A stretch of DNA of 64,000 nucleotides from positions 1-64,000 of the forward strand of contig CAVWFK010000036.1 in the NCBI GenBank assembly GCA_963754235.1, written 5' to 3'. The notes under the pieces are model-generated. The model worked only from the letters and a program-made list of their open reading frames with translations. It had not been told where the DNA came from and did no database searches. The stretch comes from an uncultured Alphaproteobacteria bacterium (GTDB lineage: Bacteria > Pseudomonadota > Alphaproteobacteria > Acetobacterales > Acetobacteraceae). How positions within the stretch are numbered: the first letter of the stretch is position 1; the number at the start of each line of letters is the position of its first letter. Below are positions 3,345 through 40,642 of this stretch, in pieces. A program made the translations under genes and the position numbers.

Positions 3345-4129
3345 GCCACGTCCTCCGCCAGCGGCAGATCGAACAGCAGGCCGTGGATGCGCCGCGCGAG
3401 CCGGCCGATTGTGGGATCGTCGGCGCCGCGATGGCGAAACCCGTCCGAGTTCAGCTCGGCGCGCACGCGCCCCGGATGCGGCGACAGCACCAGGATGCGC
3501 GAGCCGATCAGCACCGCCTCCTCGATCGAGTGGGTGACGAACATCACGGTGAAGCGGAGCTGGTCCCACAGACCCATCAGCTCTTCCTGCATGGTGCGGC
3601 GGGTGAGCGCGTCGAGCGCCGCGAAGGGTTCGTCCATCAGCAGGATGTCGGGTGCCATCGCCATCGCCCGCGCGATCGCGACCCGCATCTTCATCCCCCC
3701 CGAGAGCATGTGCGGATAGGCGTCCGCGAACTTGGCAAGCTGCACCTTCTCCAGGATTGCCATCGCGCGGTCGCTGGCGTCGCGGCCGCGGAAGCGCCCG
3801 CTCGCGCGCATCGGGAACAGCACGTTGCCGAGTACCGTCTTCCACGGCATCAGTTGCTCGAACTCCTGGAACACCATCATCCGGTCCGGGCCGGGGCGCA
3901 CGACCGGCCGGCCGCGCAGCGCGATGCTGCCCTCGGCGGGCGCCATGAAGCCGCCGATCGCCTTCAGCAGTGTCGATTTGCCGCACCCGGAGGGGCCGAG
4001 GATCACGAACCGATCACCCGCCTCGACGGTCAGATCGACGCGCCAGGTCGCGGTGACCAGATCGTTCGGGGTCTTGTATTGCAGCGTCAGGCCGCGAACT
4101 TCGAGCAGCGGACTAGCCTCGGGCTGCAT
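3341..4129 (-). CDS. ABC transporter ATP-binding protein (NitT/TauT family)
   Basis: Walker A 'GPSGCGKST', signature 'LSGGMKMRVAIARA', Walker B 'ILLMDEPFAALD'. Start chosen at the internal 'MQPEASPLLEVRGL'. Confidence 0.85.
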   Translation of the reverse strand: MQPEASPLLEVRGLTLQYKTPNDLVTATWRVDLTVEAGDRFVILGPSGCGKSTLLKAIGGFMAPAEGSIALRGRPVVRPGPDRMMVFQEFEQLMPWKTVLGNVLFPMRASGRFRGRDASDRAMAILEKVQLAKFADAYPHMLSGGMKMRVAIARAMAMAPDILLMDEPFAALDALTRRTMQEELMGLWDQLRFTVMFVTHSIEEAVLIGSRILVLSPHPGRVRAELNSDGFRHRGADDPTIGRLARRIHGLLFDLPLAEDVA

Positions 4130-4137
4130 CGCGCCGC

Positions 4138-5151
4138 TCAGTCGCCCTTCAGCTCGCTCGCGGTTGAAGAAAAAAACACGTCTCGCCATGATCCGGGCGC
4201 ATGCGGGATCAGGCCCTGCTTTGCCATGAACGCGGCGAAGACGCCGATCTTGTGCGGATCGAGCGTCCAATGGTTCTCGGAATCCTTGAGGATTTTCACT
4301 ACATCGGCCTCAGAGAGCGCGGATGCTTTCTGCGTCTTCAGGTAGATCTGCGCCGCCTCGTCGGGGTGCTCGCGAATGAACGCTTCCGCCTGCCGCAACG
4401 CGGCCATGAAGGCCGCCACGACCTTCGGGTTCTTCTCCACGAAGCGGTTCGTCGCCCAGATGCAGTTGAAGGTGTGCGGCCCGCCCAGCACGTCGTCGCT
4501 GCTGAGCACGCGATGCACGTTCGGATGCTGCAGCTCCTCGTACATGTACGGGGCCGAGGTGAAGTGCGCGGTGATCCCCGCCTTGCCGCTCAGCATCGCC
4601 GCCATTCCGTCCGGATGCGACATCGACACGGTGAGCCTGTCGAGCTTGTGCGCGTTCGCCTCTCCGAACGCCTTGGCCGCCGCCATTTGCAGGATGATCG
4701 CCTGGATCGACACGCGCGCCGCCGGCAGCGCGATGCGGTCCTTGTCGGTGAAGCCGGCGATCGTATGCACGTTCGGGTCGATGGTATTCAGGTAGAGCGG
4801 CATCGAATTGAGCGCGGAGAGGCCCTTGACGTCGAGATTGCCGTGCGTGCGCGCCCAGATCACCAGCATCGGCGCGACCCCGCCCGACGCGAAATCCAGA
4901 TTGCCGGAGATCAGCGCCTCGTTCATCGCGGCACCGCCGGTGAAGCGCAGCCAATGCGTGGTGATGGCGACACCGCGTTGCTTGCCTTGCGTTTCCAGCA
5001 GGTTCTGCGCGCGCATCACAGTCAGCGGCAGGTAGGAAAGCCCGTATTCCTGCGCGAGCCTTACATTGACCGCCCGCGCCGAGGGCACGCCCGCCGCCAG
5101 CGTCGCGAGTGCGATGCCGAGTGCGGACAAGACCTGGCCGAGACGTCCCAT
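4138..5151 (-). CDS. ABC transporter periplasmic substrate-binding protein (NMT1/SsuA/TauA-like)
   Basis: Signal peptide 'MGRLGQVLSALGIALATLAAGVPSARA', 337 aa, SsuA/NitT-type fold features. Confidence 0.8.
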   Translation of the reverse strand: MGRLGQVLSALGIALATLAAGVPSARAVNVRLAQEYGLSYLPLTVMRAQNLLETQGKQRGVAITTHWLRFTGGAAMNEALISGNLDFASGGVAPMLVIWARTHGNLDVKGLSALNSMPLYLNTIDPNVHTIAGFTDKDRIALPAARVSIQAIILQMAAAKAFGEANAHKLDRLTVSMSHPDGMAAMLSGKAGITAHFTSAPYMYEELQHPNVHRVLSSDDVLGGPHTFNCIWATNRFVEKNPKVVAAFMAALRQAEAFIREHPDEAAQIYLKTQKASALSEADVVKILKDSENHWTLDPHKIGVFAAFMAKQGLIPHAPGSWRDVFFSSTASELKGD

Positions 5152-15369: not shown

Positions 15370-15771
15370 ATGCGTGCGATTCCGCTGGGAGTGAAGGGAA
15401 GCTTCACGCTCGCCGTCGCGCCCGCGCACTTGGCCAACCAGTTCAAGGATGCCACGCTGCCGCCGGTGCTGGCGACTCCCATGATGATCCTGGCGATGGA
15501 GAATGCGGCGCTCAACGCCATTCGCGACTATCTGGAACCCGGCGAGAGTGCCGTCGGCACGGCGGTCGATATCCGCCACCTCGCGGCGACGCCGGTCGGG
15601 CAGCGCGTGACGGCAGAGGCGGAAGTCATCAAGGTCGAAGGCCGACGGATCGTCTTCGCAGTAACCGCACGTGACGAGGTCGAGGACATCGGCAGGGGCA
15701 TCCATGAACGGATGGTGGTCGACGTCCACCGCGTAACACAGCGCCTGAACGCTAAGAGCAATCGGGGATAG
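15370..15771 (+). CDS. hotdog-fold thioesterase family protein
   Basis: 133 aa, 4HBT/FlK-like '..RRIVFAVTARDEVEDIGRGIHERMVV..'. Confidence 0.7.
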   Translation: MRAIPLGVKGSFTLAVAPAHLANQFKDATLPPVLATPMMILAMENAALNAIRDYLEPGESAVGTAVDIRHLAATPVGQRVTAEAEVIKVEGRRIVFAVTARDEVEDIGRGIHERMVVDVHRVTQRLNAKSNRG

Positions 15772-16085
15772 ACGAATTCGTCGATGCCGGTCCCGAACTT
15801 CAGGTCCTCATACAGACGCTCCGCGCCCCGGAGATGCCGCTCATTGCACGGCCAGCGCACAGCCCCCATTTGCAGGATCAACTCGTAGGTCAAGCCCGAA
15901 TAGTCGCACGGCCGGCCCTTCGACACCTTGCGCCATTCCTCGAACGCATCCCTGGGCTCCGTGAAGGGGATCAGCGGGGCTCCGTCGCGATCCTTGAAGT
16001 CCAACTTATTGGCCACCTCTACCTTCTCGATCGCATCGTACCGTGACCATTCGAGTCCGTTCCCCTCGCGTTCAGAAACCCAGAC
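15772..16085 (-). pseudogene. relic of a molybdopterin (Mo-bisPGD) oxidoreductase C-terminal domain (assimilatory nitrate reductase/formate dehydrogenase-like)
   Basis: Minus frame 'RDAFEEWRKVSKGRPCDYSGLTYELILQMGAVRWPCNERHLRGAERLYEDLKFGTGIDEFVYP' with GC3 about 85%. No start or stop; both flanks run into the antisense of neighbouring genes. Confidence 0.5.
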
Positions 16086-16089
16086 CCGC

Positions 16090-16095
16090 AAGGAG
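16090..16095 (+). promoter_or_regulatory. Shine-Dalgarno AAGGAG upstream of the DyP GTG start
   Basis: 'gcAAGGAGcgacgcGTG'. Confidence 0.5.
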
Positions 16096-16101
16096 CGACG
16101 C

Positions 16102-17148
16102 GTGCCATCCACAATTCCGCAACCGGTCGTCGCGCAGCTCACCCGCGCCGCTATTTTTCTCGTCGTGACGGTGAACTCCGGGCCGGGACATGATGTCACC
16201 GTGCGGACCTTGTGTGGTGATGTGGCTGCTCTTTTGCGCGCCGTGGGCTTCCGTGCCCTCGACGGTCGGCTGTCATGTGTCATGGGGCTTGGCTCCGACG
16301 CATGGGACCGGCTCTTCGGTGTGCCGAAGCCGAAAGAATTGCATCCGTTCCGTGAAATCCGCGGCCGGCATCACGCCGTCGCTACGCCGGGCGACATCCT
16401 CTTTCATATCCGCGCCACGCGTATGGATCTGTGCTTCGAACTGGCGACACAGATCATGTCGCGGCTGAGCGGCGCAGTCTCCACGGTGGACGAAGTGCAT
16501 GGCTTCAACTACTTCGATGATCGTGACCTGATCGGTTTCGTGGACGGGACGGAGAACCCCGTGGAGCAGGCGGCGATTGACGCCACCATCATCGGCGAGG
16601 AGGATGCGGCGTTTGCCGGTGGGAGTTACGCGATCGTACAAAAGTACGTTCATGACCTAAAGGGATGGAACGCGCTGCCCGTTGAGGAGCAAGAGAGAAT
16701 TATCGGCAGACTCAAGCTGTCCGACATCGAACTGGACGATAGCGTGAAGCCAACCTCCGCGCACAATGCCTTGACGACGATTATTGAAGACGGAAAACAG
16801 CTGGAGATCGTGCGCGACAACATGCCGTTCGGCGACGTGGGGAAGGGGGAGTTCGGTACCTATTTCATCGGTTATGCCCGCTCCCCGCGGCGGATCGAGC
16901 AGATGCTCGTGAACATGTTTGTCGGCCGGCCAGCCGGCAACTATGACCGGCTTTTGGATTTCAGCCGCGCCGTCACTGGCACGCTGTTTTTTGTGCCGTC
17001 CGCGACGTTTCTGGAGAATGTGGTGGCCGCCGGGGGCGCGGCTCCAGCGATGACCGGCCCGCCTGCGAACGGAGGTGAGGCGGAGGCCAAATCCGTCCCC
17101 GGATGGTTCACTCGGAATCGGCTCGCTGAAGAACAGAGGCAAGACATG
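16102..17148 (+). CDS. DyP-type peroxidase (DypB-like encapsulin cargo), C-terminal cargo-loading peptide out of frame
   Basis: GTG start. Strong similarity along the DyP domain ('..FVDGTENP..GGSYAIVQKYVHDL..DNMPFGDVG..GTYFIGYA..GTLFFVPS'). The targeting peptide 'DGSLGIGSLKNRGKT*' is encoded in the +1 frame at about 17102-17148, with TGA overlapping the encapsulin ATG. As written, the frame reads through into the encapsulin. Confidence 0.8.
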
Positions 17149-17952
17149 AACAATCTCCATCGGGAACTCGCCCCGATCTCCGATAAGGCATGGGAGCAGA
17201 TCGAAGAGGAGGCGTCGCGCACCCTCAAGCGCCACTTGGCGGCGCGGCGTGTCGTGGACGTGCTGGGCCCGAAGGGTCCCGAATTGTCGGCGGTCGGCAC
17301 CGGCCACCTCCGGCAGATCACGACGCCGGGCGATGGAATCCAAGCTGCGGCACGCGAGGCGAGGGCGCTCGTGGAATTGCGCGTTCCGTTCGATCTGACG
17401 CGCCAGGCGATTGACGATGTAGAGCGCGGCGCACTGGATTCAGACTGGTCGCCACTGAAGGTCGCGGCACGCAAAATTGCCTTCGCCGAAGACCACGCTG
17501 TCTTCGAAGGCTATGCCCCTGGGCAGATTCAGGGTTTCCGTCAAGGCACCAGCAACCCGACTTTGATGCTCCCGGCGGATGCGTGGAACTATCCGGATAC
17601 GGTCGCGCAGGCGGTAAGCCAATTACGCCTCGCCGGCGTCGATGGTCCCTATGTGCTCGTGCTGGGCGCCAATCCGTACACTGCAATCAGCGGAGCCAGT
17701 GCTGAGGGCTATCCGGTTCTGGAGCACATCCGGCGTCTCGTGGAGGGAGAGATCGTTTGGGCCCCAGCCATCGAGGGAGGTTTGGTACTGACCACCCGCG
17801 GCGGTGATTTTGAGTTGCACATCGGTCAGGACATCTCTATCGGTTACCTGAACCATTCTGAAGCCCTTGTTCAACTGTACCTGCAGGAAACCTTCGCGTT
17901 CCTGCTGCTGACAGCGGAAGCGTCCGTAATGCTCGCACCCCCGGAAAAATGA
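17146..17952 (+). CDS. family 1 encapsulin nanocompartment shell protein
   Basis: 'MNNLHRELAPISDKAWEQIEEEASRTLK..' 268 aa, HK97-fold encapsulin. Confidence 0.9.
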   Translation: MNNLHRELAPISDKAWEQIEEEASRTLKRHLAARRVVDVLGPKGPELSAVGTGHLRQITTPGDGIQAAAREARALVELRVPFDLTRQAIDDVERGALDSDWSPLKVAARKIAFAEDHAVFEGYAPGQIQGFRQGTSNPTLMLPADAWNYPDTVAQAVSQLRLAGVDGPYVLVLGANPYTAISGASAEGYPVLEHIRRLVEGEIVWAPAIEGGLVLTTRGGDFELHIGQDISIGYLNHSEALVQLYLQETFAFLLLTAEASVMLAPPEK

Positions 17953-18006
17953 ACGGTCGGAGCATTTGCCTGACACCACAACGATGACCTTGTTCGCGGC
18001 AGCCCC

Positions 18007-18765
18007 TCACGCTCCTTGGCGCTTGACCGTGAGCGGGCCGGACGCCTGGCAGGTGGGCATCACCTCCAGCCGGTTGACGTTCACCCGCGCCGGCAGCGAA
18101 ATGACCCAGGCGACCGTCTCGGCGATGTCCTCGGGCGTCAGCGGGTCGGCCCCGGCGTAGAAGGCGCGCGCCCGTTCAAGGTCGCCGCCGAAGCGGACGG
18201 CGCTGAACTCGGTGCCGCCGACCAGCCCCGGTTCCAGATCGGTCACGCGCACGCCGGTCCCCACCAAATCGGCGCGCAGGTTGAGGCTGAACTGCCGCAC
18301 GAACGCCTTCGACGCGCCGTACACGTGCCCGCCCGGATACGGGTAGGTGCCGGCCGTGCTGCCGATGTTCACCACGTGCCCGCGATCGCGCGCGACCATG
18401 CCGGGCAGCAGCGCGCGCGTGACGTGCAGCAGGCCCAGCACATTGACCTCCACCATCCGGTCCCAATCCGCGAGCTTGGCCACCGGGGCCGGATCGAGGC
18501 CGAGGCCAAGGCCCGCGTTGTTGACCAGCACATCGACCTCGCGCCAACCCTCGGGCAGGCTTTCGGGCAGCGCCGCGACGGCGTCGTGCTCGGTCACGTC
18601 GAGCGCGAACGGGAGGAAACGCACGCCCAGCTCGCGGCCGAGCGCTTCCAGCCGGTCCAGCCGCCGGGCGGCGCCGATCACGCGCTGCCCGTCGGCCACG
18701 AGACGGCGCGCGATCGCTGTGCCGAACCCGGCGCTGGCGCCGGTGACCAGGATGGTGCGGGTCAC
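18007..18765 (-). CDS. SDR family NAD(P)-dependent oxidoreductase (YdfG-like)
   Basis: 'ILVTGASAGFGTAIARRL', 'YGASKAF'. GTG start overlaps the ohr stop. Confidence 0.8.
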   Translation of the reverse strand: MTRTILVTGASAGFGTAIARRLVADGQRVIGAARRLDRLEALGRELGVRFLPFALDVTEHDAVAALPESLPEGWREVDVLVNNAGLGLGLDPAPVAKLADWDRMVEVNVLGLLHVTRALLPGMVARDRGHVVNIGSTAGTYPYPGGHVYGASKAFVRQFSLNLRADLVGTGVRVTDLEPGLVGGTEFSAVRFGGDLERARAFYAGADPLTPEDIAETVAWVISLPARVNVNRLEVMPTCQASGPLTVKRQGA

Positions 18766-19172
18766 GCGACTTCGAGCTTGACGTCGATGTTGCCGCGCGT
18801 CGCCTTCGAATACGGGCAGACCTGGTGCGCCTCTTGCATCAGCTTCTCGGCGGTCGCGCGATCGATCCCGGGCAGCGAGCCGCGCAGCTTGACCGCGAGG
18901 AAGAAGCCGCTGTCGTTCTTGTCGATGGTGACGTCGGCGGTGACGCGGATCTCCTTCGGTTGCACCTTCGCCTGGCTCGCGACCAGACCCAGCGCGCCGC
19001 CGAAGCAGGCGGAGTAGCCGGCGGCGAACAGATCCTCGGGGTTGCCGGCGCCGGGCTTGCCGGAGCCGCCCAGCTCCTTCGGCATGGCGAGGTCGAGCTT
19101 CACCACGCCGTCGCTGCTCTCGACATGGCCGTTGCGGCCGGCGACCGAGGTGGCGCTTGCGGTATAGGCCAT
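18762..19172 (-). CDS. ohr: organic hydroperoxide resistance protein (Ohr/OsmC family)
   Basis: 136 aa '..FAAGYSACFGGALG..VCPYSKATRGNIDV'. Confidence 0.9.
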   Translation of the reverse strand: MAYTASATSVAGRNGHVESSDGVVKLDLAMPKELGGSGKPGAGNPEDLFAAGYSACFGGALGLVASQAKVQPKEIRVTADVTIDKNDSGFFLAVKLRGSLPGIDRATAEKLMQEAHQVCPYSKATRGNIDVKLEVA

Positions 19173-19238
19173 GCGTTCGCTCCTGTTGTTGCGTGCGGTT
19201 GTTGCGTGCAGGGGGGAGGTGGGGTTCCTCTGCCGCGT

Positions 19239-21913: not shown

Positions 21914-22133
21914 TCGCCTCGTCCCGGTCGAACTTGAAATCGGGAGGAAGGCGGCCGCGGAACGCGCGTAGCCGTCTCAGCAATTCCGCACGGCCAGGTT
22001 TGCGCGCAACGGCCAGTTCCCGCGCGTCGGCGACGTGGATTTCGATCTCATCACCTTCCTTGAGTTCGAGCGCCTCGACCACGGCCGCAGGGAGGCGGAC
22101 GGCGAGGCTGTTACCCCATTTGGCGACCAGCAT
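21903..22133 (-). CDS. vapB: type II antitoxin VapB (AbrB/MazE/SpoVT fold)
   Basis: 'MLVAKWGNSLAVRLPAAVVEALELKEGDEIEI..'. 11-nt overlap with vapC. Confidence 0.8.
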   Translation of the reverse strand: MLVAKWGNSLAVRLPAAVVEALELKEGDEIEIHVADARELAVARKPGRAELLRRLRAFRGRLPPDFKFDRDEANAR

Positions 22134-22191
22134 CTTGATCTCCCGGTATGGATATACATGCGAAGAAATGTGTATCCAAGGGCGCGGCAAA

Positions 22192-23380
22192 TCAACGGAA
22201 AGGTGCTGCATTGCAGGCGGACCCGGCGAGCGTCCTTCCCCACCCCTCGGCGCCCAGCCACGCCACCCGCCCGGCCGCGATCGTGGCGACGAGGCGCGGC
22301 GTGGCCCCCCGCATCGGCGACCAGCAGCAGATCGGCGCGCTTGCCGGCCGCGATCGTGCCGCGATCGGCGAGCCCGCAGGCTGCCGCCGGATTGGCCGAA
22401 ACGAGCCGCCACGCCGCCGCCAGATCGCGCACGCCACGCGACGCCAGCACGAACGCCGCGCGCAGCATCGCCGGATAGAAATAGTCGCTGGAGAGCACGG
22501 TGCAGAGTCCGGCCTCGGCGAGCCGCGCCGCCGACGCCCAGCCGAGATGCGAGCGCCCGCGCACCACGTTGGGGCTGCCCATCACCACCCAGTCGCCCGC
22601 TTCGCGCGCGGCCTCGGCGACCGCCTCCGCCATCGGGAACTCGCAGATGCGCGCGCCGCGGGCGCGGAAGGCGGCGCGCGTCGCGATGCTTTCGTCGTCG
22701 TGGCTCGCCATCGGCAGCCCGGCCGCTCGCGCCGCCGCCGCGATCGCGTCGAGCCCGGCCGGAACGGCACCGGCACCCCTCTCCACCCTGGCCGCGAGCG
22801 CGCGGAACGCCTCAAGCGTCATGCCGGCGCGCTCGCCGTATTTCGCGCCCAACACCGGGTCGGCGATCCGGCGCAGGATCGTCGGCGTGTGGTCGTTGAA
22901 CGCCAGCAGATGCACGCGGCCGCCGGCAATGTCGGCGCGCGCCATGTCGAGTGCCGCGACGTTGAACGCCTCCCAGCGCAGATGGATGCGCATGTCGCAC
23001 ACGGCGCGTGCGCGGTGCGCCTCCATCGCGTCGAGCAGCGCGCGCCACGTCTCGGCACCACGCAGCCCGGGCTCCCAGGAGAGCGTGACACCGTGATAGG
23101 CGGTGGTGATGCCGTTCGCCAGCAGCTGCGCTTCGGTATCGGCCAGCGCGACGGACGGCGGAAAATCCACGCCCGGCCGCGGCTGCAATTGCCGCTCGAA
23201 CGCATCGCCGTGGATATCGACGATGCCGGGCAGCACCAGCAGGCCGCGCGCATCGATCGCGCAACCGGCCTCGGCACACCCGATGGCCGCGATCCGACCC
23301 TCGGCCAGCAGCAGATCGGCCGTTTCCCAATTCCCCTCGCCGAGCAGCAGGCGGCCGCCGATGACACCGAGCGGCGTCAC
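22192..23380 (-). CDS. phnM: PhnM-like amidohydrolase (second phnM copy), apparent -1 frameshift near a C6 run at about 22305-22310
   Basis: '..PGIVDIHGDAFERQ..GKRADLLLVADAGG' in one frame. The expected C-terminus '..PRLVATIAAGRVAWLGAEGW..*' is in another frame (ORF 22192..22437). GTG start overlaps the phnF stop. Confidence 0.7.
22226..22300. repeat. about 75-bp direct repeat, copy 2 (native phnM-like 3' end)
   Basis: See copy 1. The two copies bracket vapBC. Confidence 0.6.
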
Positions 23381-39826: not shown

Positions 39827-39958
39827 ACGTCAACGAATTTCTGAACCAGGACACCAGCCGCCTCTCTCGCTCCTCGCGGTGATCCTTGACCGGACGCAGC
39901 GGTGGTGTTAGAGTTCCTAACGGAAACCGCACCCGCGGTCACGTTCAAGGAGCGACAC

Positions 39959-40642
39959 ATGAGAAGCGAGGATGGGCAATTCGTGGCCGGCGCCAGCGGC
40001 AACCCTGGCGGGCGGCCGCGGGCGGTGCAGCAGGCGCGCGACCTGATCGAGGCGCTGGCCCCGGAACTGGTGATGACGCTGATGGAGATCGTGCGGGACC
40101 GCAAAGTGCCGGCCCGGGCGCGCGTCGCGGCGGCGATGGGGCTGCTCGACCGCCGCTACGGGCGACCGAAACAGCAGGTGAAGTGGGCGGACGGACTGAT
40201 CCTGCCGCTGCCCGACGACCAAGAGCGGGACGACGAAGAGCGGGGCGACGAAGAACCGGAGGAGCCCTGCCCGCCGGAGCCGCCCGCCGAGCCGGCCGCC
40301 GATGACGCTGCCCATGTCGACGCGGCGCCGGATGGCGATGAGCCTGCGGCCGAGCCGGTCGCGGCAGCCGCGGCCGAGCCGGACCCGGCCGTGACAAGCG
40401 ACGCGGCGGTGAAGCAGCCGGGCCGGCCGGACGAGGCGCCGCCGCGACCGTCCGACGAGCCGGCACCATCTCACCTCGCAGGTGGCGGATCATGGCGGTT
40501 CGGGATGGACCACGGAGCACGGTCCCCCCACGCCGGCCCCAACCCTGTTCTGAGGCGCCGCTTTCCCCACCCGGCGGTGGGGTCGCCAACTCCTGTTCTG
40601 AGGTGCGGCTTGATCCACCCCTGTCCTGAGGTGCGGCCCTGA
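39959..40642 (+). CDS. phage-related DUF5681-like protein with acidic low-complexity tail
   Basis: '..ASGNPGGRPRAVQQARDLIEALAPEL..' followed by a D/E/P-rich tail. Confidence 0.45.
   Translation: MRSEDGQFVAGASGNPGGRPRAVQQARDLIEALAPELVMTLMEIVRDRKVPARARVAAAMGLLDRRYGRPKQQVKWADGLILPLPDDQERDDEERGDEEPEEPCPPEPPAEPAADDAAHVDAAPDGDEPAAEPVAAAAAEPDPAVTSDAAVKQPGRPDEAPPRPSDEPAPSHLAGGGSWRFGMDHGARSPHAGPNPVLRRRFPHPAVGSPTPVLRCGLIHPCPEVRP

Follow-up and report, generated by a model that had tools for sequence, protein, structure and literature searches.

A DyP peroxidase and its family 1 encapsulin shell in a single open frame on an alphaproteobacterial contig, probably through a 14-bp linker deletion

The locus analysed here lies on contig CAVWFK010000036.1 of an uncultured Acetobacteraceae bacterium (GenBank assembly GCA_963754235.1), in a stretch of 64,000 nucleotides (nt) which is called the window in the following. 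It holds a canonical pair of genes, a DyP peroxidase as cargo and a family 1 encapsulin as shell, with the cargo gene directly 5' of the shell gene. As written, the pair is one open reading frame (ORF) running from GTG 16102 to TGA 17950-17952, and it encodes a fusion of 616 amino acids (aa) and 66.9 kDa in which no loading peptide is found in frame. An earlier note, made from the letters of this DNA alone, had described both the uninterrupted DyP-encapsulin frame and the loss of the peptide from the fusion, and the two descriptions are confirmed, with both domains intact.

The cargo domain is matched almost from end to end by Pfam over fusion residues 7-302 (Dyp_perox_N, PF04261, model positions 2-146 of 146, E 1.5e-32; Dyp_perox_C, PF20628, 1-165 of 166, E 1.5e-59). 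It also matches TIGR01413, and its nearest solved chain is 8U4Z, described as a 'Family 1 encapsulin-associated DyP peroxidase' (E 7e-145). The GXXDG motif is present at aa 145 as GFVDG, together with a histidine in SAHNAL (aa 221) and an arginine in IVRDNMPFG (aa 238), which are presumably the proximal histidine and the distal arginine of DyP enzymes. The N-terminus, VPSTIPQPVVAQLTRAAIFLVV, agrees with those of homologues of 353 aa such as P0027. The shell domain is covered in full by NF041155, the NCBIfam equivalog model for family 1 encapsulins (residues 352-611, model 1-261 of 261, E 3e-101, 338 bits with a cut-off of 100 bits), and by Linocin_M18 (PF04454, residues 349-599, model 1-253 of 253, 313.6 bits), the nearest solved chain being the family 1 shell of Klebsiella pneumoniae, 8U50 (E 6e-114). 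Matches to solved shells (8U50, 7BOJ, 6I9G) predict self-assembly into an icosahedral shell of the HK97 fold. Neither domain of the fusion gene carries a further lesion, as judged from end-to-end Pfam and NCBIfam matches.

The fusion is laid out as a DyP core (aa 1-303), a linker of about 45 aa (304-348) and the shell (from aa 349), and it has the organisation of a fusion encapsulin, with the cargo domain N-terminal to the shell domain in a single ORF. The computed mass is 29.0 kDa for the shell alone and 37.4 kDa for a repaired DyP. The shell ATG at 17146 shares the frame of GTG 16102, and no stop codon interrupts this frame across 17095-17145, so that GWFTRNRLAEEQRQD is read where the loading peptide would be expected. 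The peptide is encoded in the +1 frame, which reads RRRPNPSP-DGSLGIGSLKNRGKT and ends at a TGA (17147-17149) which overlaps the shell ATG as ATGA, as the earlier note had proposed; that note had also correctly located the TGA closing the +1 frame upstream and the CCCC run in between. The ATGA of the canonical operon (17146-17149) is retained, and the same overlap, or one of 8 nt, occurs in relatives. Formally, the removal of any single base within 17054-17101 rejoins DyP and peptide. A Shine-Dalgarno-like element precedes the shell ATG, in an alignment column reading …AAGAGGCAGGACATG…, and GAGG or a close variant is found at this position in most aligned relatives (L002, L089 and L090 being the variants). 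Because the element is kept here and has a counterpart in most relatives, the ribosome binding site and ATG of the shell gene probably continue to yield free shell protein of 29 kDa. The features of the locus are listed in Table 1.

Table 1. Features of the DyP-encapsulin locus, in positions of the window
Feature	Position	Strand	Basis or remark
Shine-Dalgarno AAGGAG	16090..16095	+	6 nt 5' of the DyP GTG; sequence reading
DyP catalytic core (B-type, encapsulin-associated), about aa 1-303, intact	16102..17010	+	Pfam, TIGR01413, PDB match
Cargo linker, Pro/Ala/Gly-rich, retained 5' part, FLENVVAAGGAAPAMTGPPANGGEAEAKS	17011..17094	+	still in the DyP frame
TGA closing the +1 (peptide) frame upstream	17051..17053	+	sequence reading
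Deletion junction, 14 nt AATTCGCAATTGCC missing relative to L001 and the L081-L087 clade	17094..17095	+	pairwise and multiple DNA alignments
Old linker end and loading-peptide DNA, read out of frame as VPGWFTRNRLAEEQRQD	17095..17145	+	3' part of the fusion linker
CCCC run	17097..17100	+	ancestral, not the lesion; identical CCGTCCCCGGATGG in frame in L001
Stranded cargo-loading peptide DGSLGIGSLKNRGKT and stop	17102..17149	+	+1 frame; sequence reading
Shine-Dalgarno-like AGAGG	17135..17139	+	6 nt 5' of the shell ATG
Family 1 encapsulin shell gene, 268 aa, 29.0 kDa, intact	17146..17952	+	NF041155, PF04454

Scans with the shell protein yielded 80 genome loci and 80 metagenome loci, and the GSLGIGSLK motif is common to nearly all of these 160 loci. 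The closest relative, L001, belongs to an alphaproteobacterial metagenome-assembled genome (MAG); its shell gene shares 92% aa identity with that of the window, and the two sequences are 93.4% identical in nt over window positions 16702-17965. The junction of L001 is a textbook one, in which …GGEAEAKANSQLPSPDGSLGIGSLKKRGQT and the stop codon follow DyP in one frame with an ATGA overlap. The window agrees with L001 base for base through GGAGGTGAGGCGGAGGCCAAA and again from GTCCCCGGATGGTTCACTCGG onward, and the remaining part of its linker matches L001 in the same way as far as GAGGCCAAA; between the two matching blocks, 14 nt are absent. The missing block ends in GCC, and the triplet preceding it is TCC (GCC in L001), which leaves a direct repeat of 2-3 nt (CC/GCC microhomology), as is typical of deletions by slippage. 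The DyP core ends 94 nt before the peptide in the window, 105 nt before it in L081-L085, L089-L091, L004 and L008, and 108 nt before it in L001; linker lengths among the relatives span 48-180 nt.

In its effect on the frame, a loss of 14 nt equals a +1 shift. The DyP stop is bypassed because the deletion moves translation into the shell frame, which is open across the peptide DNA, and L001 possesses the same open frame (f+0) at this place (…VPGWFTRYRLAEEERPDM). The earlier note had suspected a homopolymer error, with one C too many in the CCCC run, and this part of its proposal fails: L001 reads the identical CCGTCCCCGGATGG in frame as P-S-P-D-G, so that the run is ancestral and not the lesion, and a clean 14-nt gap lies just upstream of it. 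An error in this homopolymer was accordingly rejected as the cause.

Whether the fusion is shared by relatives was assessed through the concordance of frame between DyP core and loading peptide, which could be determined in 71 short-read metagenome loci from JGI and 79 genome loci, 150 in total. Core and peptide were in different frames in none of the 71 metagenome loci and in three of the 79 genome loci (L032, L040, L063), all of which are MFD MAGs; two of the three, L032 and L040, carry further frame changes inside DyP. The comparison of orthologous loci, which the earlier note had put forward as a check, hence finds DyP and peptide kept in frame in the relatives, and among the 150 assessable loci no close relative has the fusion. 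When 5.8 billion proteins were searched with the full fusion, at least 27 turned out to combine a DyP with a Linocin domain, at 60-84% identity to the query. These public fusions (P0001-P0026, P0034) are unrelated to one another, each is found on one contig, and only P0012, with three sequences, is more than a single-sequence cluster. At their junctions the peptide DNA is read out of frame (e.g. …HRCARVRSASDLSKETYHMNNLHRELAP, or …RWFARYRFSERKRQDMNNLHRELAP in P0022), and additional frameshift scars are visible in P0007, P0008, P0010, P0011, P0014, P0015, P0019 and P0021-P0023. Three of the fusions (L161-L163) were traced to their source, and these are ENA assemblies whose contigs bear Flye-style names, one of them with the polishing suffix '_np1212', and in L163 a neighbouring gene is also split in two. 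L161 and L162, the two aligned at the junction, owe the fusion to 1-nt insertions in the linker, and the window lacks such an insertion. Nothing in this distribution suggests selection for the fusion.

Some variation in the junctions deserves to be recorded separately. In P0003 and P0008 the fusion point is the ATG itself, and the loading peptide remains in frame. The commonest junction in the clade (L002-L160) is an 8-nt overlap, ATGAATAA, in which DyP ends with …HE and a stop 5 nt inside the shell gene, and ATGA is found in a minority. In six loci (L012, L014, L018, L093, L096, L097) cargo and shell are in the same frame with only TGA-CCC between them (…SLKKG, stop, PM), and stop read-through alone would there yield a fusion which retains the loading peptide.

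The remainder of the window was examined by Pfam coverage and a codon-usage maximal-segment scan, a GC3 sliding-window scan being too blurred. For each of the 15 other genes tested, Pfam coverage runs from end to end in a single frame; these include ribosomal protein S1 with its six S1 domains, GGT (2-510 of 512), two TPP enzymes, PhnI (1-347 of 348) and EPSP synthase. The coding segments found by the codon-usage scan extend to the stop codons and have starts close by. Elsewhere in the window, only the ORFs 39899-40642 (plus strand) and 21977-22295 (minus strand) are candidates for a lesion: their codon-usage signal ends 67 and 105 codons before the stop, which may reflect low-complexity tails or undetected frame changes. 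The protein collection includes four further proteins encoded on this NCBI contig but neither the fusion nor a separate shell protein, as would be expected had the locus been annotated as a frameshifted pseudogene. On balance, the evidence leans towards a biological deletion rather than an assembly error.

The cassette differs from its surroundings in composition, with 61% GC (window 16001-18000) against about 70% in the flanks. Homology with L001 ends 13 nt past the shell stop, beyond which the flanks are unrelated and show no synteny, and close relatives of the cassette occur in Alphaproteobacteria, Acidobacteriota, Binataceae, Nitrospira, Dyella and other taxa. The GC contrast, the taxonomic spread of the relatives and the lack of flank synteny with L001 are consistent with horizontal transfer, by which the cassette was probably acquired. 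Directly 5' of the DyP start, on the minus strand, lies a coding-like remnant of about 90 codons (15768-16040, within ORF 15528-16283) which matches residues 500-558 of the periplasmic nitrate reductase 2JIM (E 1.6e-5) and also formate dehydrogenase alpha subunits. Pfam found no match in this minus-strand ORF, and the N- and C-terminal parts are absent from the remnant. Judged by its matches, it looks like a piece of a molybdopterin oxidoreductase gene, which suggests that the cassette landed in or beside a decaying gene. The low GC, the missing synteny with L001 and the adjoining remnant fit dispensable, horizontally acquired DNA.

Decay is plain in the sister copy. The DyP of L001 is truncated at its 5' end and begins at about residue 200, right after a poly(A) run of about 40 nt in AT-rich DNA (L001 2380-2545), and a nonsense change from CAG to TAG interrupts its shell gene (L001 3385-3390, equivalent to window 17530); the L001 cassette is a pseudogene. 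The poly(A) and AT-rich segment is unlike the rest of the L001 contig, and a mobile element or an assembly chimera are candidates for its origin. For the shell gene, the ratio of nonsynonymous to synonymous substitution rates (dN/dS, Nei-Gojobori) is 0.31 between window and L001 and 0.17-0.26 between intact pairs; with L081 as outgroup the branch values, which derive from small counts, are about 0.14 for the window and about 0.78 for L001. The low value on its own branch implies that the window copy was under purifying selection for most of its history, so that the deletion is recent or tolerated. If the lesion is accidental, the decay of a horizontally acquired encapsulin cassette appears to be documented in two related Alphaproteobacteria.

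The explanation which we regard as probable is a real and recent 14-bp deletion in the linker of an ordinary, horizontally acquired DyP-encapsulin operon, which gave rise to an accidental read-through fusion. The starting point would have been a two-gene family 1 operon, in which a DyP cargo carried a C-terminal loading peptide and the shell gene started at an ATGA overlap. A single deletion, flanked by microhomology, may then have removed 14 bp from the Pro/Ala/Gly linker, an unconstrained stretch which connects the DyP core with the loading peptide, and moved translation out of the cargo frame and into the shell frame, which would have been open across the old peptide DNA. Ribosomes starting at GTG 16102 would no longer make the loading peptide nor stop at the ATGA, and would produce a 66.9-kDa chain of DyP, linker and encapsulin, while the shell Shine-Dalgarno element and ATG would be kept and the synthesis of free 29-kDa shell protein would probably continue. 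The fusion would thus be an accidental by-product, either incipient pseudogenisation or a tolerated mutation, and not a selected design; the event, we infer, was recent and unselected. The earlier note had left the choice between a real and unusual fusion or pseudogenisation on the one hand and a homopolymer indel error on the other. A real lesion or pseudogenisation fits best; as an unusual kind of fusion the locus fares poorly, with no relative sharing the arrangement and with the public fusions isolated from one another.

Several points weigh against a real and accidental deletion. Neither scan returned a sequence of the same species, the best matches having 92% aa identity among the genomes and 85% among the metagenomes, and because no second genome of the species was found, a 14-nt error of consensus or assembly is possible. 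The variation in linker length among relatives also makes a real in-frame indel combined with a 1-nt error arithmetically possible, and the otherwise perfect domains and the low dN/dS of the shell branch (about 0.14, from small counts) are equally compatible with a working fusion. An artefact of sequencing, assembly or polishing, in which the linker is normal and in frame and the gap (or a 15-nt indel with a 1-nt error, or a surplus C) was introduced afterwards, is rather unlikely. In its favour, the linker is GC-rich and of low complexity, its length in relatives (48-180 nt) would accommodate an in-frame indel next to a 1-nt error, and linker-frameshift fusions of the same kind recur in long-read-style assemblies (L161-L163; L032, L040, L063) and are absent from the 71 short-read metagenome loci. 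What speaks against it is the form of the lesion, a single clean block of 14 nt with perfect flanks and microhomology, whereas the error-type cases which could be aligned, L161 and L162, are 1-nt insertions; the surplus C fails on the in-frame CCCC of L001, and all 15 other genes tested in the window, as well as the domains of the fusion gene itself, are free of other lesions.

Functional covalent loading, in which the deletion would be real and tolerated or favoured and free shell protein from the internal ribosome binding site and ATG would co-assemble with a minority of DyP-shell chains, so that the hexameric 37-kDa DyP would be tethered inside without a peptide, is improbable. Its geometry is attractive, since the N-terminal cargo and the linker of about 45 aa, Pro/Ala/Gly-rich in its first part, mirror natural fusion encapsulins, the domains and catalytic motifs are intact, the Shine-Dalgarno element and ATG of the shell are kept, and the shell branch has the low dN/dS already mentioned. 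Against it stand the single occurrence, which no relative among 150 assessable loci shares, the isolation of the database fusions (all but P0012 being single-sequence clusters among 5.8 billion proteins), the pseudogene state of the sister copy L001, and a stranded peptide DNA which is still perfect and suggests a recent event. Space within the shell is a further difficulty: 60 copies of a 37-kDa domain fill about 2,700 nm3, and the interior of a 24-nm T=1 shell amounts to about 3,600-4,200 nm3. The known fusion encapsulins have T=3 shells and small cargo domains, in reported DyP encapsulins a shell contains no more than one or two hexamers (PMC8346489), and even at T=3 an overloaded shell is distorted (PMC10402063). 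Closure of a small shell by a pure 1:1 fusion is therefore unlikely; an assembly in which only a few DyP chains are tethered among free shell subunits is conceivable by analogy, the fusion linker of about 45 aa resembling those of natural fusion encapsulins. Programmed +1 frameshifting, by which both peptide-tagged cargo and fusion would be made, was rejected as extremely improbable. A slip from CCC (17098-17100) to CCG (17099-17101) at the CCC-G site (17098-17101) would give …AKSVP-DGSLGIGSLKNRGKT and restore the peptide exactly, as …SVPDGSLGIGSLKNRGKT with the trans-frame peptide SVPDGSLGIGSLK, and CCC-N sites are prone to +1 shifts. However, the arrangement is conserved in no relative, L001 has the same CCCC in frame, no slow, rare or stop codon follows the site, and no suitably placed stimulator is found: at +1 sites of the prfB type an SD-like (Shine-Dalgarno-like) element lies about 3 nt upstream, whereas the nearest candidate here, GGAGG (17082-17086), is 11 nt upstream of the CCC codon.

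Set beside known systems, the accidental fusion which we favour shares its gene order with the family 1 operons that have DyP as cargo, such as those of K. pneumoniae (8U50/8U4Z), Mycobacterium smegmatis and M. tuberculosis (Cfp29-DyP), Brevibacterium linens and Rhodococcus jostii (DypB). It has in common with them a cargo gene whose 3' end encodes a GSLGIGSLK-type peptide, the ATGA overlap and, within the peptide DNA, the Shine-Dalgarno element of the shell gene, and it differs in that the 14-nt deletion puts the peptide out of frame, bypasses the cargo stop and leaves one ORF. With the Flp fusions of Pyrococcus furiosus and Sulfolobus and the diheme cytochrome c fusions of anammox Planctomycetes it shares an N-terminal cargo, which would face the lumen, and a flexible, Pro/Ala/Gly-rich linker of about 35-45 aa. 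Those fusions, however, are conserved across genomes, form sequence clusters of their own and combine T=3 shells with small domains, whereas the window has a 37-kDa enzyme which works as a hexamer, its nearest solved shells come from DyP systems, the case is single and the ancestral peptide DNA is still visible. In a census which covered 1,505 DyP systems, the only natural family 1 fusions described were those with Flp (Archaea, T=3) and with diheme cytochrome c (anammox, T=3) (PMC8346489; bioRxiv 10.1101/085266). The locus resembles the public DyP-encapsulin calls (P0001-P0026, P0034; L161-L163, L040) in that a frameshift in the linker places DyP in the shell frame; unlike them, it has one 14-nt deletion in an otherwise clean context of 64 kb, the public calls showing 1-nt indels (in the two aligned) and, in several cases, extra shifts in the DyP or shell gene. 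It looks like a one-off mutation and not a new kind of system.

The architecture of these operons has a bearing on how fusion encapsulins are counted. With an overlap of 4-8 nt between cargo and shell and an alternative frame open across the peptide DNA, a single indel in the linker yields an apparent cargo-shell fusion, and the public protein sets hold at least 27 spurious-looking calls of this type, which censuses of fusion encapsulins should filter. Were covalent loading true, natural fusion encapsulins, which comprise the Flp and cytochrome c types, would gain in this locus the first example of a further type, and it would capture how one indel can turn an operon with an ATGA overlap into such a fusion. 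Should the fusion be expressed and assembled, a tether would replace peptide-mediated loading in one mutational step, with implications for the engineering of cargo loading and for the way in which the Flp fusions of Archaea and the cytochrome fusions of anammox bacteria arose.

A scan of 15700-18300 for promoters and terminators gave nothing above shuffled expectation. Directly downstream of the cassette, on the minus strand, lie a short-chain dehydrogenase gene (18007-18768) and a gene of the OsmC-like peroxiredoxin family (18762-19199); genes for short-chain oxidoreductases have been reported, as accessory genes, in the vicinity of mycobacterial DyP operons (PMC8346489).

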